DNA of 64,000 nt from Candidatus Stahliibacteriota bacterium (GCA_030609135.1 JAUWCU010000001.1:927-64926); one strand, 5' to 3'. Numbered from the stretch's first letter, positions 7,255 to 30,582 are shown. The notes: generated by a model not told the origin, from the letters alone. Numbers and translations are program-made.

Positions 7255-7432
7255 TAGGTAAGCTATTCTAAAAAATGATAAAAACAATGAGGCCAAATTG
7301 CCAGAAATGGTATAAAATAATGTAGTTGCCCAATTCATTGGGCTTCTTTTAGTGCAATAACTTCGTTATTGCAATGCCTGATAAATCAGGCTACTACAAT
7401 TTTAGGATAGCTAAACTGTTACCCGTTCCTAG
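7255..7432 (+). ncRNA. Candidate structured small RNA / repeat element family A, copy 1 (three hairpins: GCCCAATtCATTGGGC, GCAATAACttcGTTATTGC, GCCTGATaaATCAGGC, then AATTTT)
   Basis: About 90% identical copies at 25624-25858 (-) and 45834-46035 (-); preceded by consensus promoter; no RBS-led ORF. Confidence 0.45.
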
Positions 7433-7448
7433 TACTTAGTATTCAGTA

Positions 7449-9116
7449 TTACTCCATTTCAATCAAGCATTGCAGGATTTCCAACTCATCGGCGTCAAAC
7501 CATATCAACCTGCAATGTTGGCACTCATCTATTTCTACATGATATGCATAGCTATAAAACTTATGGATCATATCCTGCCCGCATTTTGGACAACGCCTTG
7601 GGTGAGACAGGCTGAGGAGAATATTGAAACGGGGGCGTCTCTTCTCTGCCTCAGCGCTCATCACATCGGCTAATCGCTGCACCCTCTCGTTGAAACCTTT
7701 TTCCCGCCGGACAAAAACCCTCGGCAGTTTATCTCCCTCAACGAGCAGTCCGTCGCAGAATGCACAGCGCCACAGATACAAACCCTCATAACTCTGAACA
7801 ATCAACCACTTGTGACAATCAGGACATAAACGCCTTATCTTCCATATCGGATCATTTCTTTGCTGAAAAAAGTAACTCAACGCCGGTATTTCCTCTACTT
7901 TAAATACCTCATCATGATCAAGCAGATGCAATCTGGATTCTGGTTTCAACCACTCTAATGATTGAAGTTGAAGGATAGTGTAAGGACCCTGCCATTTATC
8001 CTGGTGCTGTGCATGAAATCGGAGGGCAGGCTTTATGACTTCAACTTCAGTTTTTGGGCTCTTGCCTTCTTTCATATGGTAGACGATATCAGCTAAGTCT
8101 GCGTGGGCAAGCTGGAGGATAACCTGAAGTCTCTTTAACAAAGGTGGATGTGTCGAGAAAAGAGTGGCAAAAAAATCTTCCTGCTCATCAAACTTCTGAG
8201 GTGAAGGGTTAAATATAAAAATCGCCGCGATATATTCTCCCCCATAACCAACACCACGCCAGTGTGTTCCGATCTTGTACAAGGCGCTTGCCAGGCTAAC
8301 TGGATTACGGGTGAATCTAACTGCCGAAGCATCGGCGCGATATTCCTTTTCTCTGGAAATAAACATGTTCAATAATTGCCCGAGGATATTGGTGACAAAA
8401 AGAAGAAGCAATGCCGGGAACGATAGTAAACCAACGGTCCCAACATTTTGCTGGGCGGCACCGGCTATCGTGGGCACCGGTTGCAGCCCTTGATGGCTTA
8501 ATGCTCGATTGAAATGCGTAAGTGTCTCGCTATATACACTAAAAAGAGAACAAGTAATAGTTGTCTGCAGACAATCACCAGAAATAATGTGTGACATTTC
8601 ATGTGCGATTACTGACTGCAGTTCTTCACGAGTCAATCGGGACAACAGACCCTCAGTGATGCCGACTACGCGACGTCCGCTCATATCAGCAAGTGCAAAA
8701 GCATTCATTGCACCGGTCGGTAAAACATACCGCTCGACCGTAAGACCACCGGCTGCAGTCTCGATTTCATCGACGACATTCTGAAACATATAATGGTACT
8801 TATCACGTTTGTCCGGATATTTGGCACCCAAAAGACGCAGGACATTACTAACAACTCCTTTATTCGAATAATACCAATGAATCCCCGCTGCTACTGCAGC
8901 AACAATCAATACAGCCAAGGTATCCAGGCCAAAAAACTTGAATGAAGAACCAGCACGGTACAAAGATTGCCTAATGTCTATAAAGAACTTAACCAGGGAC
9001 CACAACACAAAAACCGGGCAAAAATATAACAGGATAAGAATGGCAAATAATACATAGATACGCCAGGTCTTCTCTTTTTCAATATCCCAGAAAGTCTTAA
9101 AATTGCGAGTCGGCAT
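7449..9116 (-). CDS. Membrane M48-family (HtpX-like) zinc metalloprotease with C-terminal multi zinc-ribbon domain
   Basis: HEMSHI (HExxH) and downstream EYRAD motif, N-terminal TM helices, four CxxC pairs at C-terminus. Confidence 0.75.
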   Translation of the reverse strand: MPTRNFKTFWDIEKEKTWRIYVLFAILILLYFCPVFVLWSLVKFFIDIRQSLYRAGSSFKFFGLDTLAVLIVAAVAAGIHWYYSNKGVVSNVLRLLGAKYPDKRDKYHYMFQNVVDEIETAAGGLTVERYVLPTGAMNAFALADMSGRRVVGITEGLLSRLTREELQSVIAHEMSHIISGDCLQTTITCSLFSVYSETLTHFNRALSHQGLQPVPTIAGAAQQNVGTVGLLSFPALLLLFVTNILGQLLNMFISREKEYRADASAVRFTRNPVSLASALYKIGTHWRGVGYGGEYIAAIFIFNPSPQKFDEQEDFFATLFSTHPPLLKRLQVILQLAHADLADIVYHMKEGKSPKTEVEVIKPALRFHAQHQDKWQGPYTILQLQSLEWLKPESRLHLLDHDEVFKVEEIPALSYFFQQRNDPIWKIRRLCPDCHKWLIVQSYEGLYLWRCAFCDGLLVEGDKLPRVFVRREKGFNERVQRLADVMSAEAEKRRPRFNILLSLSHPRRCPKCGQDMIHKFYSYAYHVEIDECQHCRLIWFDADELEILQCLIEME

Positions 9117-14424: not shown

Positions 14425-14988
14425 TCACTCAACATCTACTTGTGCCTTCTGCTTCATCAGTTTTTTCAGTAGATAACCGGTCATCACCCGATTAAGATGC
14501 TCAAAATCAGTACACCCGATTAAATCGCTGCCCTTGATATCAGTATAGTAAAGCTCATCGTTGTCAATGTTTTTCTTCTCAACCTTGACCTTGAATTCAG
14601 CATCGAATGCAGTCATGAACTGTCTTACCGGCATATCGATGATGCCCTTTTCAGAATACTGTGCGATCAGTGTATCGATTTCTCTTCGATTCTGAGACAG
14701 GTGTTCGATCTCCTTTTCTATCTCTCCTCTTGACCCTGTGGCTTTACCAAACATGTACTGTAGATTCACCGGATCCTGTATTTCCTTTAACTTATCAGCC
14801 CCTTTCTTTAAAACCCCCTCGAGTATAGCGATTGCCTTTTGGATCTTATCCTGTGCTTCAAGCAGACAAGACAGATATGCCTCGATAACCTGGAATGAAG
14901 GCATCTTTTCCAAATTATCGTAGAACAATTGACCATAGGGTTTACAAAATGGCCCCTTATCTATATCCTCAATAGAATCAAACACCAT
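14425..14988 (-). CDS. Hypothetical protein (probable start at internal Met [10 protein letters not shown]; ORF overlaps enolase 3' end if extended)
   Basis: ORF only; no recognisable motifs. Confidence 0.35.
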
Positions 14989-16288
14989 ATTCAATCCCCC
15001 TGCTTCCTCTAATAAAAGCTTCTTTGGCAAGGTGTATTGCAGCACCCTTTAGTTCATCCTCAATACGTAAAAGCTGATTGTATTTCTCAATACGTTCGCC
15101 GCGGCATGGCGCACCAGTCTTCAAAGCTCCAGTACCCATGGCAACGGTGAAATCCGCAATAAAAGAATCTACTGTTTCACCACTTCGGTGTGACACAACG
15201 ACACCCCATTTGACCCTCTGTGCCATCTTCACCGCAGCAATCGTTTCGGTAAGCGTACCGATTTGATTTGGCTTGATCAACACGGCATTAGCAACCTTCT
15301 CCCTGATGCCTCTCTCAAGCCGCTCAACATTGGTGACGAAAATGTCATCGCCGATTAGCTCGATCTTATCGCCCAGGGCGTCATTCAACATTTTCCAACC
15401 TTCCCAGTCATCTTCAGCAAGACCATCTTCGATCGCCACGATCGGGTATTTATTGACCAACCCCACATATTTCTTAACCATTTCTGCAGAACTAAGCTCA
15501 GTGTTTTCTATCCGTAACTTGTACTTGCCATCTTCAAAAAAGCAACTTGCTGCAACATCGAGTGCTATGCCGACGTCTTCACCGGGTCGGTAGCCAGCCT
15601 TTTCAATCGCACGGACAATGAAGTTAAGGGGTTCTTCATTTGACGCCAGTTGAGGTACAAACCCACCTTCATCAGCAACTGTAATCCTAAGCCCTTTGTC
15701 AAGCAGAATATTTTTCAGCGCGTGATATGTTTCACTGCCACACCTCACGGCTTCTTTGAAGCTTTTGCATCCATAGGGAACAATCATGTATTCCTGGAAA
15801 TCAGGTCCCTGCAATAACGTATGAACACCGCCATTGATAATGTTCATCATTGGAACCGGTATCAATACTGCATAAGGACCGCCCAGGTACTTATACAAAG
15901 GAAGACCTACTGCCGCTGCTGCAGTACGGGCAATAGCCAATGATACCCCACATAGAGCATTAGCACCCAACCTTTTCTTATTTGGCGTTCCATCAAGCTC
16001 AATCATGAGCTTGTCCAAATTAGGCTGTTCAGTTACATCACAACCAATTAACGCCGGCCCGATTATCTTGTTGATATTCTCAACAGCCTTTTGGACCCCT
16101 TTTCCACCATACCTTCGGTTATTACTGTCTCTGAGTTCAATTGCTTCATAAGTACCCGTGGATGCACCTGATGGAACAGCCGCACATCTTTTTAGTCCTG
16201 AATCCAGCTCAATATCAACTTCGACTGTCGGGTTGCCGCGCGAATCCAGTATTTCTCTACCAAAAACTGACGTTATATTTCTGTTCAT
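14978..16288 (-). CDS. eno: Enolase (phosphopyruvate hydratase), canonical
   Basis: [56 protein letters not shown]. Confidence 0.95.
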
Positions 16289-16366: not shown

Positions 16367-18991
16367 CTATTTGCGGTCGGTGTAGATCTGCATCTGTTCT
16401 CTTAGAACCTGATACAGTTTAATATCATCTTTCTTTACCTTTTCTTCAACTTTTTGCAGACCCATAATAAGGTCATCAAAAGTCAGGTTATCACAGAACA
16501 ATCGCCAGGACATATCTTTACTACCTTGCAACTGCTGCAACTTCTCTTTTGTCAACCCATCGCTTATCAAATCCAGGCCCCCGTGAGCCAATATCGCCCT
16601 GGCAACGGTCTGCTTCATCTCCTCTCTCAATAGCTGCCACAAATCCTTCCCCTGAATATGAGCGATCAAGCGGCCAACTGCCAGAGACATGGACAAGATA
16701 GCATTCATACCAAGATTACCCTTCCTTTGCATAATCTTAATGAATTCATCACTGGTAGCGTTTTGAGATACCTTGCCCCTTTTGATCGCAGTCTCTTTTT
16801 CAATAGTAAGCAGTTTCCTGTCAAGTTCAATAATACTTGTGAAATCCACAGCTTTCTTACTGATAAACTCCTTAGCAATGATATTCAGTACGTTCTTGAC
16901 AGCGTTTTTACAGCCCATACCACCATAGCGCTGGCTCATATTCCAAAGTGCAAATAGCTCTTGGTCCTTAGTCTGCGTAATATCATTGGTCGTTAATTCC
17001 TTTTTGAATTTGTATGTCTTATCACCCTGTTCGCTAAACAAATCTCTATGCTTATCAACAACTGGAGACCTTTCAATTATGCTGTCCACCAGGTGAATGG
17101 CTTCATCTAATCCTGCTGATGTGCCAAGCGGTGTGGCACCGGTGAATTTCAAGATTCTTCTATATTTCTCACTCCCTTCAATACCGAGGTGAACCTCGAC
17201 CCCGACCGTTGGAATCCCTGCATTAGTGGGCTCTTCATAAGCAATTACATCGGTGATTACCAAGGAATCAATAAATTTCTTGGTCTCGAACAATCCTTTT
17301 TTCTCGTACTTGCCCTCAATCACTTTTTCCATATCCTTCATGATTTTTGTCACGGCGCCGTATTTAAAAAGCCGCTCGGTATTGGCACCGCCGCCGGTCT
17401 TCATGCCGAGCGCGTTTGCGGCAAGGGCAATCTGTGCTTCCATATCATCATTAGGTGATTTCGACCGGTGCGACACAACAAGCTCCAATCCTTTGCCCAA
17501 AGCGACAAGCATAGCAAGTATTGTTTCTGACAAAGTGCCGATTTGATTAGCCTTGATCAATGCCGTATTTATCAGTCTATTATCAGCACACTCCTCGATC
17601 GTGGAATCTTTGGTCGTGACCAGATCATCGCCGATAATAAGAACCTTATCGCCAAGTTCTTTCATCAAAAGCCGCCATCCCTCGTAATCATCCTCAGCAA
17701 ACGCATCCTCGAGTGAAATTATTGGAATTTCCTCAACGGTTTTCTTGTATAGATCCACCAATTGATCCCTGGACATAACGATCTTTTCTTCACTGCGCCA
17801 GAAAAAATACATCCCGATACTGTCTGACTGCTTGAATTCAATTCGATAGGCATTGCTCAATTCACTGAGTGCCGGATCAAAAGCAAGAACAATATCCTTC
17901 CCTGGAACATAACCAATATCTTTGATGGTCTGGACCGCCATGCGCCACATCCTTTGCTCTGGTATGGTATCAGACGGTTCTTTACTAATATAAGGAGCCA
18001 AACCACCTTCCAAACCTGTCCCCATAACCCGTGAGCCAGTTGCCTTTTCTATTATCTGTTTGAGCCTTGTTTGTAATCTGACCGTGATCATCTGAGCCTC
18101 TTCATAGTTTTTCGCGCATAGCGGCATGAACATCATCTCCTGCATACTAATATTACTCTCTGGATACTCCTGTTCAGTATGACGACCGCCCATACCGCAG
18201 TTCCTAAACTGCCATGGCGCGCGCAGTTTTTCACCCTTCTCAAAAGTGATTTCCTGCATCCTTTTGTTCCTGAGCATCTCTTTCACAGCTTTTGCCCTTT
18301 CAATCCAGTGCTCCCCAGGAATTTCAACTCTTTTCGCATGTTGTGCAGCTAATTTCTCCCGCCGTGAATACTCCTTCAATTTACCCGGATCAGCCAACAA
18401 GAAATCAAGCAAACCGACGGCGCCGATACCAAAACATAATCTACCAATGTAAGTCATTAAATCATGATGTAATGTAAGTCCGATAATGAGCAAAATGATG
18501 GCAAGCGGGAGCATGACCAAAGCCATTTTACCGCTTATTGCAGGTCCTGCAGCTGCCACGCTCAAATTGAATGGAGCCTCCGGGTAGTAGGTTAGACCCT
18601 CCTTCTTCACCCCGGCGAATTTGCCATAGGGAATTTGCAAAAACATGCCCGTATACCACATCAATCTTCCAAAGAAATTCCTTCCGGCATTTCTCTTTGC
18701 CTCGGGTAGGATATTTTCCTTTAATGCATTTGACTTAACCGCCCTGAGATAATGACCCATTTCATGAATCGCCACGCCGGTATGAAAACTAATCAACAAA
18801 AACAGTGCTGAGATAATAGTTTCATAACTTGTAAATACAAATTTTAATACATCCGGTCCATACAGGTCCGCCGGAATATTTAATAATGAAGACATAAACG
18901 CGACATGGAATGAAACCAGAATATGGTTTGCAATTACATGCGTTGAGTGCAGACTTTGTTTGTTTTTGTTCATTATAGATCTCATATTCAA
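16367..18991 (-). CDS. Membrane protein: N-terminal HExxH (M50/site-2-protease-like) domain fused to a domain-order-permuted enolase-like module (TIM barrel first, then enolase N-terminal domain)
   Basis: HEMGHY in hydrophobic region; barrel motifs DPALSE, EDAFAEDDYEGW, IGDDLVTT, IKANQIGTLSET, SHRSKSPND, MKTGG precede N-domain-like IPTVGVEVHLG...TSAGLDEA and NLGMNAILSMSLAVGRLIA. Confidence 0.7.
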   Translation of the reverse strand: MNMRSIMNKNKQSLHSTHVIANHILVSFHVAFMSSLLNIPADLYGPDVLKFVFTSYETIISALFLLISFHTGVAIHEMGHYLRAVKSNALKENILPEAKRNAGRNFFGRLMWYTGMFLQIPYGKFAGVKKEGLTYYPEAPFNLSVAAAGPAISGKMALVMLPLAIILLIIGLTLHHDLMTYIGRLCFGIGAVGLLDFLLADPGKLKEYSRREKLAAQHAKRVEIPGEHWIERAKAVKEMLRNKRMQEITFEKGEKLRAPWQFRNCGMGGRHTEQEYPESNISMQEMMFMPLCAKNYEEAQMITVRLQTRLKQIIEKATGSRVMGTGLEGGLAPYISKEPSDTIPEQRMWRMAVQTIKDIGYVPGKDIVLAFDPALSELSNAYRIEFKQSDSIGMYFFWRSEEKIVMSRDQLVDLYKKTVEEIPIISLEDAFAEDDYEGWRLLMKELGDKVLIIGDDLVTTKDSTIEECADNRLINTALIKANQIGTLSETILAMLVALGKGLELVVSHRSKSPNDDMEAQIALAANALGMKTGGGANTERLFKYGAVTKIMKDMEKVIEGKYEKKGLFETKKFIDSLVITDVIAYEEPTNAGIPTVGVEVHLGIEGSEKYRRILKFTGATPLGTSAGLDEAIHLVDSIIERSPVVDKHRDLFSEQGDKTYKFKKELTTNDITQTKDQELFALWNMSQRYGGMGCKNAVKNVLNIIAKEFISKKAVDFTSIIELDRKLLTIEKETAIKRGKVSQNATSDEFIKIMQRKGNLGMNAILSMSLAVGRLIAHIQGKDLWQLLREEMKQTVARAILAHGGLDLISDGLTKEKLQQLQGSKDMSWRLFCDNLTFDDLIMGLQKVEEKVKKDDIKLYQVLREQMQIYTDRK

Positions 18992-19148
18992 TTTCTACCA
19001 GCCGATTATACACAATACTTCGCAGATGTCAATTACTCAAATACGTGAACCCACGCCGCTTTTCCACGATGATATTCAATGCGGTAGTGGCAGAGCTCGC
19101 TCTGACATAAGTATGATTCTGCTTATAGAACGGTATTGTATAGACTGA

Positions 19149-20720
19149 TTAAGGACGGTATCTCAGAGGGCAAGACAAGCACCGCTTAGCTTCTTTCTTT
19201 AACTCATTTTTAGATACCTTCAACTCAACTTCCTCAAAATCGTGTATTCTGTCTTCGACCTTTCGATGGGGGATTACCATCCTTTCTACAGGATGTAGAG
19301 GAAGAAAAAATACATGAGGGTAATAGGTTCTCTTCAGTATTCTAGCGAATAATGGATGTATTCCTCTCATATACAAATCTATCTGCTCAGCTGCATTCAG
19401 ACCGTGCCCAACTGCGTGGGCAACGGTTTTGCTACCCAAGACCGCATCGCCCCCGGCAAAAATCTTTGGATGAGACGTTCTCCAGTTCTTCGTCTTGATA
19501 CAACCGGATGTGTCACTCTTTAAATACTCCTTCAGAAAATCTGTATCAGGATATTGTCCAATAGCCATGACGATATGATCCAAATCGACATCAAATTCAC
19601 TTCCCTGTATTACCTTTACACCACCTTTTCTACCCTCTCGGCATTCAGTCTTTTGCATGATTATTCTGTTTTCCTCTATCTTTATTGGTACTGTAAGCGG
19701 TACAATTTCAATCCCTTCCTCCTGGGCTTCCACTCGGTCTTCACGTTCAGCCGGCATATCCTCTATCCTTCTTCTGTAGTATATCTTCACTTCATTACCT
19801 TGCCTTATCAAACTACGCGCGATATCAATCGCCGTATTGCCACCGCCAATAACGCCAACCTTACCCAACTTGAATTTTTCACCCTTTTTTATCTGCCTGA
19901 GAATGTCAAAACCGACCAGTGCCCTCTTTTCACCTGGGATACCGAGTTTTGTCGGCTTCCACGCGCCGGTAGCGACAAAGACAATATCATAAGTTTCCAA
20001 TAGCTCATCCATGGATAAATCCTTACCAACTGCGACACCGTACTTCAGTTCAACACCAACATTCATTGCGGCCTCAATTTCCTTATCTAATAAAGATTGA
20101 GGAAGACGAAACTCTGGTATTAATGTAGCGAGAACGCCGCCCGGTTTTTGTTCTCTCTCAAATACAGTAACCCCGTATCCTTTATTCACAAGATAGTACG
20201 CTGCAGTCAAACCACATGGACCTGCACCTATTACTGCGATTCGCTCTTTTTTTGTTTTCTGCTTAGGGGTTGGCACCTGCATCTTTACGCCAGACTTGAG
20301 ATATCTTATTGCAACAGCTGCATCAATTCCTCTCCTTGTGCACTGATCTTCACAAGGGGCTGGACAGATGAGTTCAAGAGTTCTGAAAAAAGGCACGAAT
20401 GAATACGGTTGACTATTATCTGCTGCAACAAGATTTACATATATCCAGGGCGCAATGCCCGCCGGACATGCCTTTTCACAGGGTGGCTTTTCATAGCCAA
20501 CCCCTTTATACGCATCATACACGTTGTATAGCCAAACCAAAACCCAAGCAGCGAGCAAACCCCAGAACCCAGGGTTGAATCCTGTCCAGATTTTAATCAT
20601 TATGGCAATCGAGCCGTAAAAGAAGACTGCAAATGAAATTCCAGCCCACAATCTGCCTGAACAAATCTGACCACCACCGACTACAAATGCTGATATAAGT
20701 GCTGCCTTACCGTACTTCAT
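19149..20720 (-). CDS. Membrane-anchored GltD-like NAD(P)H:FAD oxidoreductase with Fe-S cysteine clusters (glutamate synthase small-subunit family)
   Basis: N-terminal TM helices, CEKACPAG / CPAPCEDQC Cys clusters, GAGPCGLTAA dinucleotide-binding motif, second GGGNTAID Rossmann motif. Confidence 0.75.
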   Translation of the reverse strand: MKYGKAALISAFVVGGGQICSGRLWAGISFAVFFYGSIAIMIKIWTGFNPGFWGLLAAWVLVWLYNVYDAYKGVGYEKPPCEKACPAGIAPWIYVNLVAADNSQPYSFVPFFRTLELICPAPCEDQCTRRGIDAAVAIRYLKSGVKMQVPTPKQKTKKERIAVIGAGPCGLTAAYYLVNKGYGVTVFEREQKPGGVLATLIPEFRLPQSLLDKEIEAAMNVGVELKYGVAVGKDLSMDELLETYDIVFVATGAWKPTKLGIPGEKRALVGFDILRQIKKGEKFKLGKVGVIGGGNTAIDIARSLIRQGNEVKIYYRRRIEDMPAEREDRVEAQEEGIEIVPLTVPIKIEENRIIMQKTECREGRKGGVKVIQGSEFDVDLDHIVMAIGQYPDTDFLKEYLKSDTSGCIKTKNWRTSHPKIFAGGDAVLGSKTVAHAVGHGLNAAEQIDLYMRGIHPLFARILKRTYYPHVFFLPLHPVERMVIPHRKVEDRIHDFEEVELKVSKNELKKEAKRCLSCPLRYRP

Positions 20721-21501
20721 ATTTGATCGCCTTTGTTGGACACACCTTTACACAATCCAAGCAACGTATACAGTCAATGTGATTTGACGACTGATAAATG
20801 GGCACATCCATGGGGCAAACCATTCTGCACGATTCGCACTCAATACACTTTTCCTTATCTATCTGCAGTTTCAAAAGGCTGAAACGATTGAATATCGAGT
20901 ATATTGCCCCAACCGGACATAAAGTACGACAGAAAAATCTTTTAATTGATATCGAAAATAATATAACTGCTACTAATATCGCTGCCTTCATATAAAAATG
21001 CCAGCCAACAAGTGCTTTGAGGTCACTAGTCTTGTCTGATAGAACTAACGGGATCCCGGCAATCAAATTACCATCCGGGCATAATTTGCAAAACCACGGT
21101 TCTCCAATAAAATAAGGGAGCATTATTGCAGCACCAACAAGCATAGCATATTTAAAATAAGAACACCACCTTGGCAATTTCATTTTCGCTGATCTTATTT
21201 TGTATAATAGATCCTGGAAAAACCCAAATGGACATATCCAACCACACGACATCCTTCCCACAATCATACCAACTGTACCAAAGAGCCCTATGATGTAATA
21301 CGGAATCAGCCTCAAAGCAATGAAGTGCTGAAGTCCACCCATAGGACATGAATACCAAGCAAGTGGACATCCCCAGCAATTCAAGATTGGTGTACAGCCT
21401 TTTTTGAGAAAACCCTGATATAAACCACCCTTTAAAAGAGCTGGAATGTATGAATTATGAATTATTACGGCGATGATTTGAATAATCCGCTTTAACTTCA
21501 T
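20707..21501 (-). CDS. Membrane polyferredoxin (NapH/CcoG-like 4Fe-4S protein)
   Basis: Multiple TM helices, CxxCxxCxxxCP motifs CIECESCRMVCP and CIRCLDCVKVCP. Confidence 0.75.
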   Translation of the reverse strand: MKLKRIIQIIAVIIHNSYIPALLKGGLYQGFLKKGCTPILNCWGCPLAWYSCPMGGLQHFIALRLIPYYIIGLFGTVGMIVGRMSCGWICPFGFFQDLLYKIRSAKMKLPRWCSYFKYAMLVGAAIMLPYFIGEPWFCKLCPDGNLIAGIPLVLSDKTSDLKALVGWHFYMKAAILVAVILFSISIKRFFCRTLCPVGAIYSIFNRFSLLKLQIDKEKCIECESCRMVCPMDVPIYQSSNHIDCIRCLDCVKVCPTKAIKYEVR

Positions 21502-21635
21502 TCAATCCCCATACAAGATAAACACATCACCGAACCAACAGTTTCAGTTTCATCAAAATCGCCAAGTACACCACCGTAGATAATGCTGGCAATAAATATG
21601 GCAGCAAACATAAGAATGAAAATAATCTTTTTCAT
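21498..21635 (-). CDS. Small 45 aa membrane peptide MKKIIFILMFAAIFIASIIYGGVLGDFDETETVGSVMCLSCMGIE, translationally coupled (ATGA overlap) to polyferredoxin
   Basis: Hand-translated ORF below the 60 aa cutoff of the ORF track; single TM + acidic stretch + CxxC; stop TGA overlaps ATG of next gene. Confidence 0.4.
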   Translation of the reverse strand: MKKIIFILMFAAIFIASIIYGGVLGDFDETETVGSVMCLSCMGIE

Positions 21636-21703
21636 GATCTTTTCCTATTTACAAAATCATTAGTGTCATGTTTAAAATCTGTGTTGTCATAAAACCAATT
21701 AAC

Positions 21704-23227
21704 TTAGAACATGCTGGTTAGTACCAATTTGACACCCCGGAAGGGCTCTTCGAATCGACAGACGCCACCAGAACATACTAAACCACCTTTTTCCGCACCA
21801 ACCCGCAAGCGCAGATTATGGCGGCGCGTCAAATCAAGGCTCAACTCGACCATTGGCCAAGATGTTTCCTCACCGAGTTTAGGTATCAGCCAATCCGGCG
21901 GTTTGCGGCTGCGCCTTTCATAGCGTACAGAGAGCACAAACATCTCCGGTTTCCCTATTGACAAAGAAACAGCATGATCATAGTAATCACTCGTGTCACT
22001 GGATACGATATTGTGTTCATAACCAGCGTCAACAAAAAACAAACCAAAATCACAGGTAATTTCAATATAGGGTTTGGTTTCGATTTTTTCCTGTATGGGC
22101 AGTTCAATCCCCTGTTTGATCATCCTTTCAATACCGGTTGTAATTTCCACATTGGAACTCGGGTGAGTAGTAAGCTTGGCAATCTGTTCAAGCACACCAT
22201 CCATGTCCTCATCGAGATTTATTATTTCCTCAAACATACCCGATGACGCATCATGGGTTGAGATTTTATTATTGCTCAGCTCCAGTGAGATAAAATCAAA
22301 TGGTGAAGCAACTACTGTTGCACCATAACCAATCTCATCAATCCCACGGTTCACAGAAACCCCGGATTTTATGGGCGTTGGTGGTTCATTATAACGGTAC
22401 CCTGGACCGCCAAAACCAATGTTGTCGTAGTTAACATATTGACATGAAATACCCAGACCAGGGATAGCAAGACCAGTGGAAAGAAGAAACCCGTCGCCTT
22501 TTAACCGACCCCCGACTACTGGGTAAGTACCCCATTGCCGTCCATACTCAAAATAACTCTCCCAGGGTCCAATGGTCAAACCAGCATTACCACCGAACAA
22601 TTCAGTAAATGCCTGGGGTGTCAGATCAGAAACCCGGTTCACGCGCACATAGCGACCAGCAAACGAGGTGACAATATTGACCCGCTTTTTGGACAGCGGC
22701 AACTTGATTTCATAATTTGCACCTCTGACTTGATCGGTCGTATCGTTTTTTACCGAATAGCTGAGTTGTTCAAAAAAAATATTCCTCGGTTTACCAGTAA
22801 GTAATGTCAACCGACTATTAAAGAATTTAATATCTGCTTTCAGACCGAATAAAGAGTTATCATTATTAAAATCCTCGTCAAGGAATTGATTGAGCACCAA
22901 ACCCCTGCCAAATGTCGGGTAATACGTACCATAGAGAACACTCACCGGGTCTTTTCGATACTGCGCAGTGAAATCAAAGTATTGGAGCGAACCAGGGACG
23001 GCTATTGATGGATCCCAAAAAAAGAAAACACCTTTGAGCATGATATCTTTGTAATTAACCTTGAGTTTTAGTTTTTCAGTAAGGTGTTCCTTGTAGTTAA
23101 GACTGTCTAATCGGCGGTCAACAAATACCCAGTACTCAGCATGGTTCGCGCCACTGACACGTATATCTGATGCAGCAAGCAGATTGCACACTGTAAGTAA
23201 GAACAGAGTTTTACTCGCCAGTTTCAT
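21704..23227 (-). CDS. Putative outer-membrane beta-barrel protein (likely start at MKLASKTLFLL signal peptide; ORF extends to 23284)
   Basis: Signal peptide, beta-strand-rich composition, C-terminal ...LVLTSMF ending in Phe. Confidence 0.5.
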   Translation of the reverse strand: MKLASKTLFLLTVCNLLAASDIRVSGANHAEYWVFVDRRLDSLNYKEHLTEKLKLKVNYKDIMLKGVFFFWDPSIAVPGSLQYFDFTAQYRKDPVSVLYGTYYPTFGRGLVLNQFLDEDFNNDNSLFGLKADIKFFNSRLTLLTGKPRNIFFEQLSYSVKNDTTDQVRGANYEIKLPLSKKRVNIVTSFAGRYVRVNRVSDLTPQAFTELFGGNAGLTIGPWESYFEYGRQWGTYPVVGGRLKGDGFLLSTGLAIPGLGISCQYVNYDNIGFGGPGYRYNEPPTPIKSGVSVNRGIDEIGYGATVVASPFDFISLELSNNKISTHDASSGMFEEIINLDEDMDGVLEQIAKLTTHPSSNVEITTGIERMIKQGIELPIQEKIETKPYIEITCDFGLFFVDAGYEHNIVSSDTSDYYDHAVSLSIGKPEMFVLSVRYERRSRKPPDWLIPKLGEETSWPMVELSLDLTRRHNLRLRVGAEKGGLVCSGGVCRFEEPFRGVKLVLTSMF

Positions 23228-23741
23228 CCTTTTCACCTTCATTAAATAACTCACGCATCGTCTCAATAAGGACCTCCTCATCACCCGGTTTATAACCCAT
23301 GTGGGTGAAGACGATCTGTTTGTCCTGGTTGATTATGAAACTTGACGGCATTGCCTGGACATTGTACAGGTCGCGCAGGATATCATCCGGGTCCATGACA
23401 ATTACGTACTTCCACTTATGGCTCTGAGCAAAAGGTTTGACATTAGGCACACTTCTTGCCTTATCAACACTAATCGCCAAAAGGTTCATGTTCAAAGCAT
23501 CAAACTCATCATAGTATGGCTTAAGCGCATCGAGTTCTTTAATGCACATCTTGCACCATAGCGCCCAGAAACTCATAAAGACCGGGCCATCAGCAAGGAG
23601 CGAATCAAGACATACGGTATTGCCGTCAACGTCCTCAAGCGTGAAATCAGGGGCATCGATTATCTCTCCTTCATCAGCAAAGGCGAATATAAATGGTATT
23701 AAAAAAACAAATGCGAATTTTCTCATTCTATTTCTCCTCAA
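23211..23741 (-). CDS. TlpA/ResA-like secreted thiol:disulfide oxidoreductase (thioredoxin fold)
   Basis: Signal peptide MRKFAFVFLIPFIFA, redox motif WALWCKMCIKE (CxxC). Confidence 0.8.
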   Translation of the reverse strand: MRRNRMRKFAFVFLIPFIFAFADEGEIIDAPDFTLEDVDGNTVCLDSLLADGPVFMSFWALWCKMCIKELDALKPYYDEFDALNMNLLAISVDKARSVPNVKPFAQSHKWKYVIVMDPDDILRDLYNVQAMPSSFIINQDKQIVFTHMGYKPGDEEVLIETMRELFNEGEKDETGE

Positions 23742-24456
23742 AAGGACTAATTATTGACTGCATCACTTCTTTGGTATCTATATCCTGAACAAAAACGACT
23801 GTTTTCATATCGTTTACCGGTATTGCATGGGAAAAGGTTATGATCGTATCAAGTGTATCAGGATATGTTAGCTCAACTGGAAAAAAATAAAGTTCCTGGC
23901 ATATGTACATAAACGTTGTGTAGGCACCAGGCAAGCTATCCTGTAGAATCGCTACATAGACAATAATCTCGTCATCCGGGATCGTATCCGCAGTCACAAT
24001 AGTAAGATCTATGGACCCTGTAGACGGCGATGCCGCAGCGTTATTAATATACAAATTAAAGTACGGCGTCGCAGTACGAGCGATTTCTACACGTGCGGCA
24101 AACAAACTATCATATTCCCCAGGGTTAGGTTCCCACACAACGTCGGGGCCGTCAAAAAACACATACCACGGTACCAGTCCAGTATTATAAAATGCTTCAC
24201 GCTCGTCAGCAGCTGGATTATTATAAGTTCCCCCTATATGGTAGGAAATAATAGCAAGTGTATCACCGTAATAAGATAGTGAATCAGTAAGTGCCCGCTC
24301 CGCGAGCGCACAAAACCCTCAGTTATCCTCAGTAAAGATCTCAGCGAGTACGACCCGGTCAGTTGGTTCTGGAAATTCAACTTCCGGCGCATCAGAACAG
24401 ACACTTAAGAATAGTAATATTATTGCCAATGGAATAAAAAAAACAAGTTTTTTCAT
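23728..24456 (-). CDS. Candidate secreted selenoprotein (single in-frame TGA at 24319-24321 giving U-G-F-C); signal peptide/lipobox-like N-terminus
   Basis: ATG 24456 frame is continuous to stop at 23728 except one TGA; upstream MKKLVFFIPLAIILLFLSVCS signal peptide only makes sense if read through; hairpin follows TGA. Confidence 0.5.
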
Positions 24457-24543
24457 AAGCGAATTATACAAACATAAACCCATTTGTCAATAGGAAATTA
24501 GTTGTTAGTCCTGTATATTCCGCTTTTCCTCTTACCTTACAAC

Positions 24544-25590
24544 TTACCTTACAACAATCTTTCCAGATGTATTTGCCAGCAGACTCGTAAATTCATAGAA
24601 GTAGATGCCTGAGCTCATTGTCTGGCCTTTGCTGTCTCGCACATTCCATTGGACTGCGCTATGCTTGCCCAAAGATACTCCCTTGAACTTCTTGATTCGA
24701 CGACCTGATACATCGTAAATAGCTATGGTGTATTCCAAACCGGCAGGCAACTCAAATACAAACCCTGTTTCCCCAACACAAGGATTAGGCATAACAAGCA
24801 CCTGGTTCCTTTTCACATCCGTGTTCACTTCTTCAACCCCGAGTTCAGTTACTTTTTTCATACCGCCCTGCCAGATTTCAAATGTGCTGTCAACTTGCAT
24901 GCTATCATTCTGTATCCACGCTATAATTGTACAATGATTATCATTCCATATGGGATTTATGGTAAAAGGTTGTGTGACAATTGCATAGTCACTTGCCGGA
25001 ATAGATACAAGAGTTCCGTTATAGTCAGGCAAGTAGTCACGGGGTACATGATTGTGCCATTCAACACTATTTGGCGCCATGTAATACAAACTGTCTTCAG
25101 TAATAACAATTATTACCCTGCCATTAACAGTCGCAGTAGAATCATTTTGCAAATGGACATTAACTGTACCTTCTCCAGTTGACGGTGTATACTCTCCCCA
25201 CATGGTTATTGTTACCGGCGCAGGCATTGCCATGCGGTCAGTTATCATTGACTCCCATAACATATAGTCAAAACCACCGTGTTGATTACCGTCATACCAT
25301 AACCATGGTTCAAAGTACACACCATAGAATGGCGGCGGATAATAATGTATCCGTTGATACGCTTCTTCTAAATAGAACGAATCCGCAGAGCTGAAGTGCA
25401 CATCAACGACAGCGACTCGACCCGGGTATGTCACTGCAATCTGTGCCAGTGTCCCACTGGCAGTTCCGCAATCAGGTCATTCCTCGTCGCCAATATGCTC
25501 GCAAACAACAACGCGCTCGGCGGCAAAGCTCGTATTTACGAACAATATACAAAGAACAAGACTTATGAGTACTTTGACTAAGTTTTGCAT
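24544..25590 (-). CDS. Candidate secreted selenoprotein paralog (in-frame TGA at 25477-25479 giving U-P-D-C) with T9SS C-terminal sorting domain
   Basis: ATG 25590 signal peptide MQNLVKVLISLVLCILFVNTSFA in frame with 24544..25434 ORF through one TGA; hairpin TGCCAGTG-GGA-CACTGGCA 14 nt downstream; C-terminal T9SS CTD. Confidence 0.5.
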
Positions 25591-25858: not shown

Positions 25859-25990
25859 ATTACAATTATATACACAATCACTTAAGTGTCAACAACTTTT
25901 GTACCCGCATGTACAATCGGTCAGATTCCATTTGACTGCCCCTTGACACAAGCCCCGCCCCCTATATAATACTGCAGGATACAGGTAATT

Positions 25991-26075: not shown

Positions 26076-26735
26076 ATGTATAATTTATTTCTTGCAGATG
26101 ACCACACCGTGCTAAGAAACGGTTTGAAACGTATTATTGAAGAGAATTCAGGCTACAAGATTGTAGGTGAAACTGGAGATGGTTTAGAGATCGTTCATCA
26201 ACTGCGGAAACTACGTCCTGATATGATAATATTAGATATATCCATGCCTGGCCTGCGCGGCATTGAGGCAATCAATAAAATCAGAAAATTCAATAAGAAT
26301 ATAAAAATCCTCATATTAACAATGCATAAAAATGATGAATATGTTTATGAATGTTTAGTCAATGGTGCTCAGGGATATTTGCTTAAGGACGATGCAGATA
26401 TAGAGTTGATTGCCGCAATAAAAGAAATACAGAAAAACAAAATCTATATTTCTTCATCTTTCTCCAGTGAGGTAATAAGCAAACTCGTGCAGCATAGAAG
26501 TAAGGAGCGAGATAAGAAACAGAGATCAGTCTTCAAAGACCTCTCCCCACGCGAAAGAGAGGTGCTTAAATTGATCGCGGAAGGCAATCAAAACAAAAAA
26601 GTTGCCAGGAAACTGGGGATAAGTGTCCGCACTGTCGAACACCATCGGTTAAGCATAATGAGAAAGTTGAACGTTTCTAATACTGCAGGTCTTGTAAAAT
26701 ACTCTATAAAAGCCGGCTTGGTTGAGCTAACGTAA
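26076..26735 (+). CDS. NarL/FixJ-family response regulator (REC + LuxR-type HTH)
   Basis: DDHTVLRNGL, phosphoacceptor-region LDISMPG, C-terminal LSPREREVLKLIAEGNQNKKVARKLGISVRTVEHHR. Confidence 0.9.
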   Translation: MYNLFLADDHTVLRNGLKRIIEENSGYKIVGETGDGLEIVHQLRKLRPDMIILDISMPGLRGIEAINKIRKFNKNIKILILTMHKNDEYVYECLVNGAQGYLLKDDADIELIAAIKEIQKNKIYISSSFSSEVISKLVQHRSKERDKKQRSVFKDLSPREREVLKLIAEGNQNKKVARKLGISVRTVEHHRLSIMRKLNVSNTAGLVKYSIKAGLVELT

Positions 26736-26743
26736 TTGTTAAC

Positions 26744-28690
26744 ATGAAGAACAGAAGGAAAAGGCGTAAAAGCATCACGAGAACGAGCAAACATCAGGCG
26801 AAATCAAAAGTAATCAAAAAAACAGGACTACAAACCGAAGAGAAATATTTATCTGTTCTCACGGAGCTACCCGATATAGTCTATAAAATCGATCAAGATG
26901 GACTTTTTACATTTATTAACAACGCAGTTCGCATCCTGGACTACAAAGCTGAGGAACTCATCGGGAAACATTTCAGTAAAATAGTCCACCCGGACGATGT
27001 AAAATCATTCAGCAGGCACTTTGTTTTACCACAATATAAGGGTAAAACAACTGGATATGAAAAAGCACCAAAACTCTTTGATGAAAGAAGAACCGGTAAA
27101 AGAAAAACAAAGAATCTTGTGATACGGTTAATCCCGAAGAAAAACAGAGATAAAAAACCAGAATCAATTATTGGTGCAGTTATTGCCTTTGGTGACGTGA
27201 GTTCCGCAGGATACTATGATACTTGTGTGATGAAAAGTGAAAAGGACTTCCTTGGTACACTCGGGATTATCAGAAATATCACAGCGACCAAACAAGTTGA
27301 GGAAAAACTTCATTACCAGGCTGATTTACTTCAAAATGTTTCAGACGCTATCATTTCAACTGACTTCAATTTTAAAATCCAAACTTGGAACAAGGCTGCA
27401 GAAAAGATGTATGGATGGAAAGCCCATGAAGTAATTGGACGTAATGTGTACAAAGTCACCAAGATAAGATATCCACATGACACGACGGAACATGTCCTGA
27501 AGGAATTTTTCAAAAGGACATACTGGCAAGGTGAAACGATCGAAATCAAGAAGGACCGTACTTCCATTCATGTACAAAGCTATGTAACCTTGATCAAACA
27601 CCACGACGAAAAGCCAATCGGTACAGTTGCGGTGAACCGTGATATAACCGCGCTCAAACGGGCTGAAGAGCAATTGCAACAATCCGAAGAAAAATACAGA
27701 AGTATAGTCGAATTGGCTCCTGATGGCATAATAATAGTTGATAAAAAAGGTATTATTACATCAGTTAATACACCTTACTGCAAACGAACGGGTTATTCTA
27801 AGGAAGATATCATTGGCAAACATATTTCAAAAATACCCACTGCACGGATAAAAGATATTCCGAAATACATCAAGATATTCAATGCCCTACTAAAGGGAAG
27901 AATATCTGAACCATTTAATTTTCAATGGATTCGCAAAGATGGAACTGTATATTGGGATGAAGTCCATGTTAGCATAATGAAAAAAGACGACAGGACAACA
28001 GGTTTTCAGGCGATCATAAGGGACATCACCGAACGCAAAAAGATCGAAAAAGCACTCAGGGTGTCACTAAAGGAAAAGGAAGCCCTTATTAAAGAAATCC
28101 ATCACCGTGTAAAAAACAACCTGCAGATCATATCGAGTCTATTGAATCTTCAGACAGCGCATATTCATGATGAATACTATAAAAATCTCTTCCGGGAAAG
28201 CCAAAACCGGATCAAATCAATGGCTCTCGTACATGAAAAGCTCTATCAATCAAAAGACGTTACGGCGATTAATGTACGTGATTATATAAATGGGCTTTTA
28301 AGGTATCTTTGCCATTCATACGGTATAGAACAAAACAGAATAGCGATTAAGACAGATATAGAAGATATCACTATGAATATTGACATTGCAATCCCATGTG
28401 GCTTGATCATTACAGAACTCGTTTCTAATTCACTAACCCATGCATTTGTTGAACCACACCGAGGTTCTCATGCAAAAATCACTATTAAAATCCATCTTTA
28501 CAGGAAAGACAAAGCAGTCCTCATCGTTAGTGACAATGGCATAGGTTTTCCTGATGGTTTAGATTTCAAGAAAACAGAATCACTTGGCATGCAATTGGTG
28601 TGTGTGCTCACTAAGCAATTGTCAGGCAATATAAAACTCACCAGAAACAAAGGTACTACCTTTACTATTACGTTCAAAAAAGGGAGTTAG
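26744..28690 (+). CDS. PAS-domain sensor histidine kinase (HisKA_2/HWE-type dimerisation domain + HATPase)
   Basis: Multiple PAS segments, H-box [21 protein letters not shown]-terminal ATPase G-boxes. Confidence 0.8.
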
Positions 28691-29919: not shown

Positions 29920-30582
29920 ATGAATATTATGTATGATATTTTTCTGGCTGACGACCACACAATCATCCGACATGGATTGAGGCGTATAATTGAAGAAAAC
30001 CCGGGTTATCGAATTGTCGGCGAAACCGGTGATGGTCTAAAGGTAATCTCTAAAATTCGAACCCTACACCCCAATATGATAATCCTGGATTTATCTATGC
30101 CTGATCTCAATGGGATTGAGGTAGTCAACAGAATTAGAAAATACAATAAGAAAATCAAAATCCTCATCCTCACCATGCATAGGAATAATGAGTATGTGTA
30201 TGAGTGTCTGGTCAGTGGTGCTCAAGGTTATATACTCAAGGAAGATGCCGATTCAGAATTAATTTCCGCGATCAAAGCTCTCAAAACAGGTAATATCTAC
30301 ATTTCTCCTTCCTTTTCCAATGAAGTCATCAGAAATCTGATTGAACGTAGAAGCAACGCCGAGCGCAAAAGAGGAAGTGCAATTCGGCGGACGCTGACGC
30401 CCCGGGAACGTGAAGTTTTAAAGCTGGTTGCTGAAGGCAATTCCAATAAGAAAGTTGCTGACAAATTAGGCATTAGTGTGCGGACTGCTGAACACCATAG
30501 ACTGAATATCATGAAGAAACTCGGCGTGACCAATACAGCTGGTCTGGTGAGACATGCGTTGCGAACCAAGGTAATCGATTAA
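29920..30582 (+). CDS. NarL/FixJ-family response regulator (paralog of 26076..26735)
   Basis: Near-identical architecture and about 70% identity to the first RR. Confidence 0.9.
   Translation: MNIMYDIFLADDHTIIRHGLRRIIEENPGYRIVGETGDGLKVISKIRTLHPNMIILDLSMPDLNGIEVVNRIRKYNKKIKILILTMHRNNEYVYECLVSGAQGYILKEDADSELISAIKALKTGNIYISPSFSNEVIRNLIERRSNAERKRGSAIRRTLTPREREVLKLVAEGNSNKKVADKLGISVRTAEHHRLNIMKKLGVTNTAGLVRHALRTKVID

Follow-up and report, generated by a model that had tools for sequence, protein, structure and literature searches.

A conserved micropeptide and polyferredoxin pair within a putative envelope redox operon of Candidatus Stahliibacteriota

How might cytoplasmic electrons reach thioredoxin-fold selenoproteins on the far side of the membrane? 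The question is posed by a stretch of 64,000 nucleotides (nt; hereafter the window) from a Candidatus Stahliibacteriota bacterium (GCA_030609135.1, JAUWCU010000001.1:927-64926). Within it, five genes lie on the minus strand between positions 23741 and 19149, beside two Omp28-like genes with in-frame TGA codons, here called Sec1 and Sec2. The five encode a TlpA-like protein, a DUF6029 protein, a peptide of 45 amino acids (aa), a NapH-like polyferredoxin and a GltD-like flavoprotein (Table 1). A preliminary description of the locus suggested that together they could move electrons from cytoplasmic NAD(P)H to periplasmic or surface thiol and selenol proteins. Its account of five co-oriented genes, with domains called at the superfamily level, is borne out by matches in Pfam and NCBIfam and by the coordinates of the open reading frames (ORFs), all five of which are present where they had been placed.

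Our reading is that these five genes and Sec2 form an operon for an envelope-spanning reductive pathway dedicated to thioredoxin-fold cysteine and selenocysteine proteins, a proposition for and against which we see the chances as evenly balanced. The system is not described in the literature that was searched (on Omp28 selenoproteins, DUF6029, selenocysteine in WOR-3, and NapH, TlpA and polyferredoxins), and no paper found there ties Omp28 selenoproteins to any electron-supply system.

The small peptide and its polyferredoxin partner

The peptide gene is preceded by an AGGA-type ribosome-binding site, and its TGA stop overlaps the ATG of the NapH-like gene by 4 nt (ATGA). Its predicted product has a basic N-terminus, a single transmembrane (TM) helix and an acidic tail ending SVMCLSCMGIE, in which the CxxC cysteines are C38 and C41, and the charge distribution predicts that the N-terminus lies inside and the tail outside. 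The preliminary description had reported this small gene with its C-terminal CLSC motif, a GDFDETE segment after the helix and the ATGA overlap; all of these were confirmed, and the gene proved to be conserved. A word-seeded search returned 39 homologues at E<=4e-7, in whose alignment the helix is variable and the tail S-V-M-C-L-S-C-M-G invariant. Among 41 distinct DNA versions from species-level genomes, aligned by anchoring on the C-terminal motif, the proportion of synonymous differences (pS) was 0.75 and that of non-synonymous differences (pN) 0.15 (pN/pS 0.20), each invariant residue being encoded by 2-6 synonymous codons. Judged by these comparisons, the peptide is under purifying selection and its gene is genuine.

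A profile search of 1.84 billion representative proteins gave 35 matches, of which 34 are peptides of 42-75 aa and the odd one is a 5,347-residue protein with no aligned stretch, and brought the homologues to more than 70 in total. Members of this wider family follow one plan: a basic N-terminus leads into a single helix that ends in Gly, an acidic stretch in which one Glu is conserved comes next, and the C-terminus has the form [ILV][ML]-C-L-S-C-[IM]-G-[IL]-[EG]. Searches of the peptide against Pfam and NCBIfam at E<=10 gave no relevant match; the sole NCBIfam match was at chance level (E 0.18, to an unrelated outer-membrane model), and the CD1871A-type family of CXXC small proteins did not match in either database. 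The peptide represents a new family. The preliminary description had called it unannotated, which is too strong: in public gene calls it mostly goes by the name 'hypothetical protein', with no family assigned, and in one metagenome-assembled genome (MAG), from Sedimentisphaerales, it was missed altogether. There, an uncalled ORF for a 44 aa member of the family (...AILCLDCIGIG; L053:7862-7996) lies between genes for a DsbD-thioredoxin fusion and a NapH-like protein, so annotation pipelines can miss the family. Detecting peptides of the ...VGSVMCLSCMGIE type in proteomic data would call for a non-tryptic search.

The distribution of the peptide is closely tied to that of its neighbour. A scan of one genome per species found it in 42 genomes, mostly bearing WOR-3 or Stahlbacteria names, with about 12 labelled 'bacterium' or 'uncultured bacterium', one TA06 and one Latescibacterota. 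The gene directly downstream was NapH-like at 41 of the 41 genome loci with a tblastn match to the peptide, with an ATGA overlap or a gap of <50 nt in all but one of them. In metagenomes, a scan with a distant form of the peptide motif yielded 80 loci, 73 with a NapH-like gene directly downstream; at three of the other seven the match lies near a contig end, and the remaining four (L073, L084, L085 and L087) have poor ORF calls. The pair was also found in a Sedimentisphaerales genome. Gene content across these loci thereby marks the peptide and one NapH-like subfamily as a conserved core, and places the peptide only beside the subfamily that carries extra loop cysteines, described below. Within WOR-3 (L011-L052) the peptides have two kinds of C-terminus. 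Where the ending is ...CMGIE, the stop codon runs into the ATG of the NapH-like gene and a GltD-like gene is invariably present; where it is ...CMGLQQ, a GltD-like gene is present in some cases and absent in others. We also considered whether the small ORF could encode the precursor of a ribosomally synthesised and post-translationally modified peptide, and rejected this in view of its N-terminal TM helix, the lack of a modifying enzyme nearby and its strict pairing with a membrane redox protein.

The partner protein resembles NapH at a distance (TIGR02163, E 4.5e-20, 72.2 bits against a cutoff of 213.05; NF007013, 67 bits against 234). It has two Pfam Fer4_5 matches, four TM helices, two CX3CP motifs and paired four-cysteine ferredoxin motifs. 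It shares with NapH-type proteins (NapGH, NosR, PceC and MauN) the four helices, the CX3CP motifs after TM2 and TM4, and a cytoplasmic C-terminal 2x[4Fe-4S] domain. NapH itself has four TM helices, and its iron-sulfur (Fe-S) clusters are cytoplasmic (PMC5449189). The cysteines that correspond to this plan, C86/C90 after TM2, C191/C195 after TM4 and eight ferredoxin cysteines at 219-254, are invariant in 42 NapH-like orthologues.

What sets the protein apart from NapH is a further, mirror-image set of invariant Cx2C(P) cysteines, together with C36 and C52, in the loops predicted to be periplasmic. Loop 1 contains C-x5-C-W-G-C-P-x6-C-P (C36, C42, C45 and C52) and loop 3 contains P-W-F-C-K-L-C-P (C138/C141); in an alignment of 38 peptide-adjacent NapH-like sequences C42, C45, C52 and C141 are invariant, and C138 is present in 37. 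A structural model (predicted local distance difference test, pLDDT, 83.4) places a short helix with a Cx2-3C motif after each of the four TM helices. Hydropathy, the positive-inside rule and analogy to NapH formed the basis of our topology prediction, in which C86/C90 and C191/C195 face the cytoplasm and C42/C45 and C138/C141 the periplasm; two motifs are assigned to each face because of the loop charges and the topology of NapH (PMC5449189). A dual Sec-Tat polyferredoxin with a periplasmic ferredoxin domain, for which there is a precedent (PMC5449189), was considered and rejected, as TM4 is not preceded by a twin-arginine motif and the charges on either side point to the cytoplasm. Two WOR-3 genomes encode, 8 kb upstream of the cluster, a longer NapH-like paralogue (~510-525 aa) that has additional ferredoxin domains (L028:1463-3037 and L042:1559-3088). 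These two paralogous genes encode the canonical cytoplasmic cysteine pair only, and have neither the loop cysteines nor an upstream peptide gene.

The surroundings of the pair differ from those of NapH as well. NapH-like proteins have been described as modular transmembrane electron carriers, usually with an FMN-binding domain (PMC8238504), and the present system is like them in that it would be a modular link through which electrons pass between redox proteins outside the cytoplasm and the cytoplasmic or membrane side. However, no genes for NapG, NapA, NosZ or other periplasmic reductases were found around the window cluster or in about 120 related loci, and there is no FMN-binding domain. 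The polyferredoxin here has an obligate 45 aa CxxC partner; its other partners are thiol and selenol proteins rather than flavin, haem or Fe-S carriers; and the donor, in half of the lineages, would be a GltD-like protein and not quinol.

The operon and its other products

The six genes are closely packed. The stop of Sec2 is 1 nt from the ATG of the TlpA-like gene, whose 3' end overlaps the DUF6029 start by 17 nt; 68 nt separate the DUF6029 and peptide genes, and the 3' end of the NapH-like gene overlaps the GltD-like start by 14 nt. Perfect TTGACA-N16-TATAAT sites occur 13 times in the window, where 0.10 would be expected by chance. On the minus strand one of them stands before Sec2 and the next only after the GltD-like gene, with none between. 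The -10 hexamer of the Sec2 site ends 6 nt before the Sec2 ATG, for which reason the transcript is probably leaderless, and the promoter begins ~34 nt before the Sec2 start, a spacing kept in most related genomes. A near-consensus promoter lies <=150 nt upstream of Sec2 in 25 of 29 related loci, and no promoter was found inside the unit in 30 of 31. On account of the tight junctions, the perfect promoters at the flanks only and the retention of this layout in relatives, Sec2 and the TlpA-like, DUF6029, peptide, NapH-like and GltD-like genes probably form a six-gene operon that is read as one transcript.

The preliminary description had placed the cluster adjacent to the selenoprotein genes. 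The adjacency is real, but Sec2 belongs to the unit rather than merely bordering it, and Sec1 has its own promoter. It had also held that separate transcription units lacking conserved synteny in relatives would speak against the cluster; gene order and promoter layout are instead kept across WOR-3, and the families recur elsewhere in a different order. Among 31 species-level loci that hold both TlpA-like and NapH-like genes, 29 have the order Sec2, TlpA-like, DUF6029, peptide, NapH-like, and the arrangement is far beyond chance.

Beyond WOR-3, at 39 distant loci left after removal of redundancy, the Pfam families seen most often in the 86 genes that follow on the same strand are Dockerin_1 (14), Omp28 (13), PEGA (11), AhpC-TSA/Redoxin (11) and DUF6029 (4). 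Across several phyla the core thus keeps company with TlpA-like proteins, Omp28-like cysteine or selenocysteine proteins and DUF6029 barrels. A typical distant operon reads peptide, NapH-like protein, one or more Omp28-like selenoproteins, a PEGA-AhpC/TSA fusion, TlpA-like protein and DUF6029; in one lineage the pair is followed by an Omp28 protein with a C-terminal tail for the type IX secretion system (T9SS), and in the Sedimentisphaerales locus the order is DsbD-thioredoxin fusion, peptide, NapH-like, TlpA-like. Four PEGA-Omp28-like proteins encoded directly after the NapH-like gene end in ILCSPCxxxx (L066:9099-10313, L111:4693-5910, L113:9100-10287 and L122:1008-2246, the last ILCTPCYLY), an ending of a type seen in 8 of 601 ORFs of >=100 aa in distant loci. 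The occurrence of such peptide-like tails on exported Omp28-like proteins lends further support to an extracytoplasmic docking site.

The TlpA-like protein matches Pfam AhpC-TSA (E 4.6e-23, 81.9 bits, cutoff 26) and Redoxin (E 8.5e-17, 61.7 bits), and its N-terminus, MRKFAFVFLIPFIFAFA/DEG, reads by eye as a signal peptide. Its closest solved relatives are ResA structures (E ~1e-18), TlpA itself following at 5.5e-6, and the active site WCKMC is kept in 29 of 31 orthologues. Equivalog cutoffs are missed for ResA (82.8 against 170), DsbE (27.6 against 123) and TlpA (26.2 against 230), and on these scores the protein is best described as a member of the thiol-disulfide oxidoreductase superfamily with no named orthologue.

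The DUF6029 protein (PF19494, E 1.3e-24, 87.2 bits against a cutoff of 27) has an AlphaFold2 model (pLDDT 79.6) that consists of a signal-peptide helix followed by ~26 long strands. Foldseek returned 254 matches at E<=1e-3, the best listed all being outer-membrane barrels (ushers, TonB-dependent receptors, porins and MtrB), and a terminal Phe is found in 37 of 38 orthologues. The sole mention of the family that we found in the literature is a guess at polysaccharide export from similarity to Wzi (PMC9603273). Just before the last strand a short hairpin carries C-S-G-G-V-C (C490/C495 in 512-residue numbering; 21704-21800, minus strand), kept intact in 34 of 38 orthologues, while four have exchanged the Ser for Thr or Met; within the barrel the two cysteines may form a disulfide or act as a redox-active pair.

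The GltD-like protein resembles GltD, NfnB and DPD-type proteins (NF009410, PRK12771) in having flavin adenine dinucleotide (FAD) and NAD(P)H domains and a two-cluster Fe-S domain of the kind that feeds a partner subunit. Its match to NF009410 (E 5.9e-104) reaches 348.7 bits against a cutoff of 516, and Pfam finds Pyr_redox_2 (111.8 bits) and Fer4_20 (32.4 bits), which indicate FAD and NAD(P)H binding. Cysteines 81, 85, 119, 123, 127, 514 and 517 are invariant in 20 orthologues. Unlike GltD and NfnB, it has an N-terminal membrane anchor, its first 75 residues being hydrophobic and conserved, and would have a polyferredoxin as its partner. Its first cysteine motif has also moved: RCLxC, which normally opens the GltD/DPD Fe-S domain, lies at the extreme C-terminus (RCLSCPLRYRP; 19149-19200, minus strand), and the remainder of the domain is near the N-terminus (20400-20490, minus strand), so that the Fe-S domain appears to be circularly permuted.

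The two TGA-containing genes encode thioredoxin-like proteins that resemble Omp28 (PF11551) and the Omp28-related selenoprotein family (NF045500), with selenocysteine (U) predicted in place of the first CxxC cysteine, and with T9SS tails. Sec1 has its TGA at 25479-25477 in the motif U-PDC, ends in a T9SS C-terminal sorting domain and scores 48.4 bits against Pfam Omp28, above the cutoff of 34.9; it is a candidate client associated with the operon from outside. Sec2 has its TGA at 24321-24319 in the motif EIFTEDN-U-GFC, matches the NCBIfam models Omp28 (E 1e-5) and Omp28_seleno (E 1.9e-4) below both cutoffs, and is likewise under the Pfam Omp28 cutoff; against NF045500, which has a cutoff of 200, Sec1 and Sec2 score 50.2 and 20.9 bits. 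Sec2 is best regarded as a predicted selenoprotein, distantly Omp28-like, and is probably a lipoprotein; a structure search found no solved relative of it. Hairpins follow both TGA codons in the window. An Rfam scan of 12-28 kb at E<=1 matched no known RNA and no model of a selenocysteine insertion sequence. The U-x-x-C motif is conserved in orthologues of Sec1 and Sec2 at WOR-3 loci and, with in-frame TGA, in about two dozen distant loci, within a thioredoxin-like ...T-x-x-(W)-U-x-x-C. Other Omp28-like neighbours have cysteine at the same position (CPYC, CGPC, CxNCP). Such an alignment of cysteine forms with the TGA position classically marks true decoding of selenocysteine, and it shows that the association is with a redox protein family and not with selenium as such.

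A reductive pathway and its alternatives

If the operon does encode a reductive pathway, electrons could take the following course. The GltD-like flavoprotein, at the cytoplasmic face of the membrane, would accept hydride from NAD(P)H and pass electrons by way of FAD to its two [4Fe-4S] clusters, and the NapH-like protein would receive them from there at its cytoplasmic 2x[4Fe-4S] domain. With the 45 aa peptide as an obligate partner, this protein would carry them across the membrane, from the cytoplasm-facing CX3CP motifs to the mirror cysteines in the periplasmic loops and on to the CxxC tail of the peptide. The tail would then reduce the ResA/TlpA-like protein by dithiol-disulfide exchange, and the latter would keep the U-x-x-C lipoprotein Sec2 reduced, and probably T9SS-exported Sec1 too, with the DUF6029 barrel and its Cx4C motif as the outer-membrane partner. 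Conserved redox-active centres would in this way follow one another without a break from the cytoplasm to the outer membrane. The comparisons show which genes are present, how the operon is laid out, what is conserved, how peptide and NapH-like protein are paired, and the cysteine and selenocysteine motifs; we infer the physical complex, the topology of loops and tail, which way electrons flow, in what order they are relayed and what they finally reduce. For the substrate our guess is that oxidised proteins of the envelope or surface are reduced or repaired, or that peroxides or disulfides are detoxified, in an anaerobe. Redox potentials favour the reductive direction: thioredoxin-type disulfides lie within reach of NAD(P)H, whose potential is about -320 mV, whereas the reverse is uphill.

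Such a pathway would have a functional parallel in DsbD/CcdA with TlpA, ResA, CcmG or Etrx, in which cytoplasmic reducing power is likewise delivered to a periplasmic CxxC protein and on to its clients, and the TlpA-like protein is a true relative of those carriers. The membrane step, however, would be of another kind. DsbD_TM (PF02683), which has one cysteine in each of two transmembrane helices, was found in none of the five proteins, and tblastn with DsbD found nothing in the window or in WOR-3 loci; the membrane part here is an Fe-S protein with a micropeptide, the putative donor NAD(P)H or Fe-S clusters in place of thioredoxin, and the clients would be Omp28-like selenoproteins. Another parallel is offered by the uncharacterised electron-transfer clusters of DsbD, DUF3570, thioredoxin-like and DUF4266 proteins (PMC8238504), in which thioredoxin-like proteins are likewise accompanied by a small protein outside the cytoplasm whose C-terminus bears a conserved cysteine motif, CXC in the case of DUF4266. 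Their carrier is DsbD, though, flavinylation is involved, and DUF4266 is secreted rather than membrane-anchored and has a different motif.

Several observations weigh against a dedicated reductive pathway of this form. We know of no mechanism by which the one-electron chemistry of Fe-S clusters is turned into disulfide reduction in NapH-type proteins. The extra cysteines of the NapH-like protein need not exchange disulfides and could bind a metal or a cluster; loop 1, where four of them lie, is modelled with low confidence (pLDDT 54-65), and in sequence and Foldseek searches solved structures matched the ferredoxin domains only and none matched the membrane part. The GltD-like gene follows the NapH-like gene in 15 of 31 WOR-3 loci and is missing in 16 (in one of which the contig ends within the NapH-like gene). 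The preliminary description had counted the flavoprotein as a member of the route; it is present here, but as it is missing from half of the loci NAD(P)H is not a universal donor, and the enzyme is better seen as an optional input outside the core. Two WOR-3 genomes have the peptide, NapH-like and GltD-like genes with no TlpA-like or DUF6029 gene nearby, and at one locus DsbD is encoded next door, so that the module need not replace DsbD. Finally, the closest relative (L012/L009; GCA_049647125, JBARXC010000198.1, ~7369-7794), which keeps the genes from TlpA-like to GltD-like at 87-95% protein identity, lacks both selenoprotein genes at the locus. What is left there is a 24-residue remnant of the Sec1 C-terminus, beside a response-regulator gene.

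We weighed other functions as well. A membrane polyferredoxin beside a single-pass peptide of ~50 aa, with an acidic stretch after the helix in both peptides, also describes CcoG (FixG) and CcoS (FixS) of ccoGHIS, and CcoG, a YccM homologue that holds two [4Fe-4S] clusters and has two Cu sites, acts as a cupric reductase and is encoded with the small CcoS (PMC7558416). By analogy, the NapH-like protein could reduce a metal ion such as Cu(II), with the M-C-x-x-C-M tail of the peptide as a thiolate/thioether metal site; the reduced ion would be handed to periplasmic proteins whose metal-binding cysteines the TlpA-like protein keeps reduced (compare TlpA with ScoI and CoxB). Methionines do flank the CxxC of WOR-3 peptides, but they give way to I or L in the wider family (LCLSCIGI). 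The loose likeness to CcoS/FixS that the preliminary description saw in the peptide is at most faint and has no support for the window peptide: FixS is the most frequent weak Pfam match of distant peptides, yet this means 3 of 29, all faint (best E 0.014) and confined to the helix and acidic stretch, and the window peptide has no match to it at E<=10, on which grounds we rejected membership of FixS/CcoS (PF03597). To our knowledge, FixS has no C-terminal CxxC. The NapH-like protein reaches 20.8 bits against CcoG (TIGR02745, cutoff 316.7), through its ferredoxin part only, and ends after that part with no Ig-like C-terminal domain; no ccoH, ccoI or cbb3 genes lie nearby. CcoS is encoded with the copper ATPase ccoI and is needed for cbb3 oxidase to mature; in ~120 neighbourhoods there are no genes for copper ATPases, copper enzymes or cbb3 oxidases, the recurrent partners being thioredoxin-fold proteins. 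We therefore think metal handling distinctly unlikely. Slightly more improbable still, in our view, is that the same route runs backwards as an oxidative, DsbB-like system in an anaerobe that may have no respiratory quinones. Electrons from periplasmic thiols or selenols, released as disulfides or selenylsulfides form, would then reach Fe-S acceptors in the cytoplasm by way of the peptide and its NapH-like neighbour. All of the components are reversible in principle, half of the lineages do without the GltD-like donor, and oxidative folding may be required by the surface proteins that are exported (T9SS, dockerin and PEGA); in a WOR-3 metatranscriptome cited in PMC12542636, quinone-dependent respiratory enzymes were not expressed. 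Set against this are the thermodynamic cost of raising thiol electrons to NAD(P)+, the thioredoxin-fold partner's nearest relatives, which are the reductants ResA, StoA, DsbE and Etrx and not DsbA, and the selenocysteine of U-x-x-C, which is typical of catalytic reductants and not of structural bonds.

A third possibility concerns not the route but its purpose. The Omp28-like selenoproteins could be the terminal reductase ends of an electron sink, through which electrons from NAD(P)H or ferredoxin are delivered to external polysulfide or sulfur, organic disulfides, a chalcogen oxyanion or peroxide, with DUF6029 as an outer-membrane conduit in the way that MtrB serves MtrA. Several surface-targeted Omp28-like paralogues per locus would fit such a role, as would the fact that GltD-like enzymes include NADPH-dependent sulfide dehydrogenase-type enzymes. 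The DUF6029 model does resemble large barrels, with MtrB at rank 15, but at a TM-score of ~0.43 the likeness to MtrB is generic barrel similarity; the Omp28-like proteins have no recognisable substrate-binding or cofactor domain, and every upstream step is shared with the reductive pathway. We regard an electron sink as unlikely, if worth keeping in mind. It is scarcely credible, by comparison, that the cluster is fortuitous, reflecting phylum-level gene order with no shared function and a spurious small ORF. The enolase genes that follow the cluster are indeed syntenic in many loci with no obvious functional link to it, but the same redox families re-associate in changed order in unrelated lineages, start and stop codons overlap, and the peptide is both under purifying selection and confined to one NapH-like subfamily.

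The wider claim that could be built on the reductive pathway is a bolder one, and we hold it tentatively, thinking it rather less probable than its opposite: that a NapH-type protein with mirror CxxCP sites on both faces and an obligate CxxC-tailed subunit constitutes a novel class of transmembrane reductant conduit, which turns the one-electron chemistry of Fe-S clusters into extracytoplasmic dithiol reducing power, is independent of thioredoxin and DsbD, and services surface-displayed thioredoxin-fold selenoproteins in several uncultivated phyla. Envelope thiol redox biology is almost wholly that of DsbB/VKOR for oxidation and DsbD/CcdA for reduction; if the claim were true, these would be joined by a third membrane device, built differently, drawing on Fe-S clusters and relying on a micropeptide. 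Omp28-like selenoproteins, which so far exist as a family model with no known biology, would gain a candidate electron supply and a genetic context. The mirror cysteine motifs are a testable idea and, if they function as proposed, would give a first handle on haem-free transmembrane electron conduction in proteins of the NapH/NosR/PceC type. The new micropeptide family is itself well supported, although sometimes missed by gene callers, and the peptide with its NapH-like neighbour provides a compact signature with which such systems can be sought in metagenomes.

Features of the locus and neighbouring genes

Table 1. Positions of the operon genes, promoters and neighbouring features in the 64,000-nt window
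Feature	Position	Strand	Remarks
Sec2	23728..24456	-	First gene of the proposed unit; outside 19149-23741
TlpA-like	ATG 23726 (likelier than TTG 23741) to 23211	-	ResA/TlpA-like, WCKMC
DUF6029	ATG 23227 (likelier than 23284) to 21704	-	Large outer-membrane beta-barrel (predicted)
45 aa peptide	21635-21498	-	MKKIIFILMFAAIFIASIIYGGVLGDFDETETVGSVMCLSCMGIE
NapH-like polyferredoxin	21501-20707	-	Fer4_5 twice + 2x[4Fe-4S] domain
GltD-like flavoprotein	20720-19149	-	Membrane-anchored NAD(P)H Fe-S protein, GltD/NfnB-like (predicted)
Sec1	24544..25590	-	Omp28-family predicted selenoprotein; own promoter; outside operon
Perfect sigma-70 promoter	24463..24490	-	TTGACA-16-TATAAT; proposed unit start
Perfect promoter	19005..19032	-	Precedes 874 aa enolase-fusion gene; downstream boundary of unit
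Perfect promoter of Sec1	25865-25892	-	TTGACA-N16-TATAAT
Perfect promoter	25943-25970	+	TTGACA-N16-TATAAT
LuxR-type response regulator, PAS histidine kinase and regulator paralogue	26076-28690 and 29929-30579	+	Divergent from Sec1 promoter region
874 aa enolase fusion	16367-18991	-	
Canonical enolase	14978-16288	-	
Low G+C segment	54001-56000		

Upstream of the operon, genes for a LuxR-type response regulator and a PAS histidine kinase diverge from the Sec1 promoter region, and a paralogue of the regulator, 65% identical, lies 3 kb beyond it. The LuxR-type regulator also adjoins the cluster in the closest relative, and redox-responsive control of the cluster is a possible role for it.

On the downstream side, the 874 aa protein has an N-terminal membrane domain with an HEMGH motif (a weak match to Peptidase_M50, E 0.002), onto which a circularly permuted enolase is fused, with Enolase_C at residues 265-556 ahead of Enolase_N at 677-788. 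The gene follows directly after the redox cluster in many WOR-3 loci, at 61-93% identity, and in the window it neighbours a canonical enolase gene. Farther away, the G+C content of one segment falls to 0.305, compared with ~0.42 elsewhere in the window.

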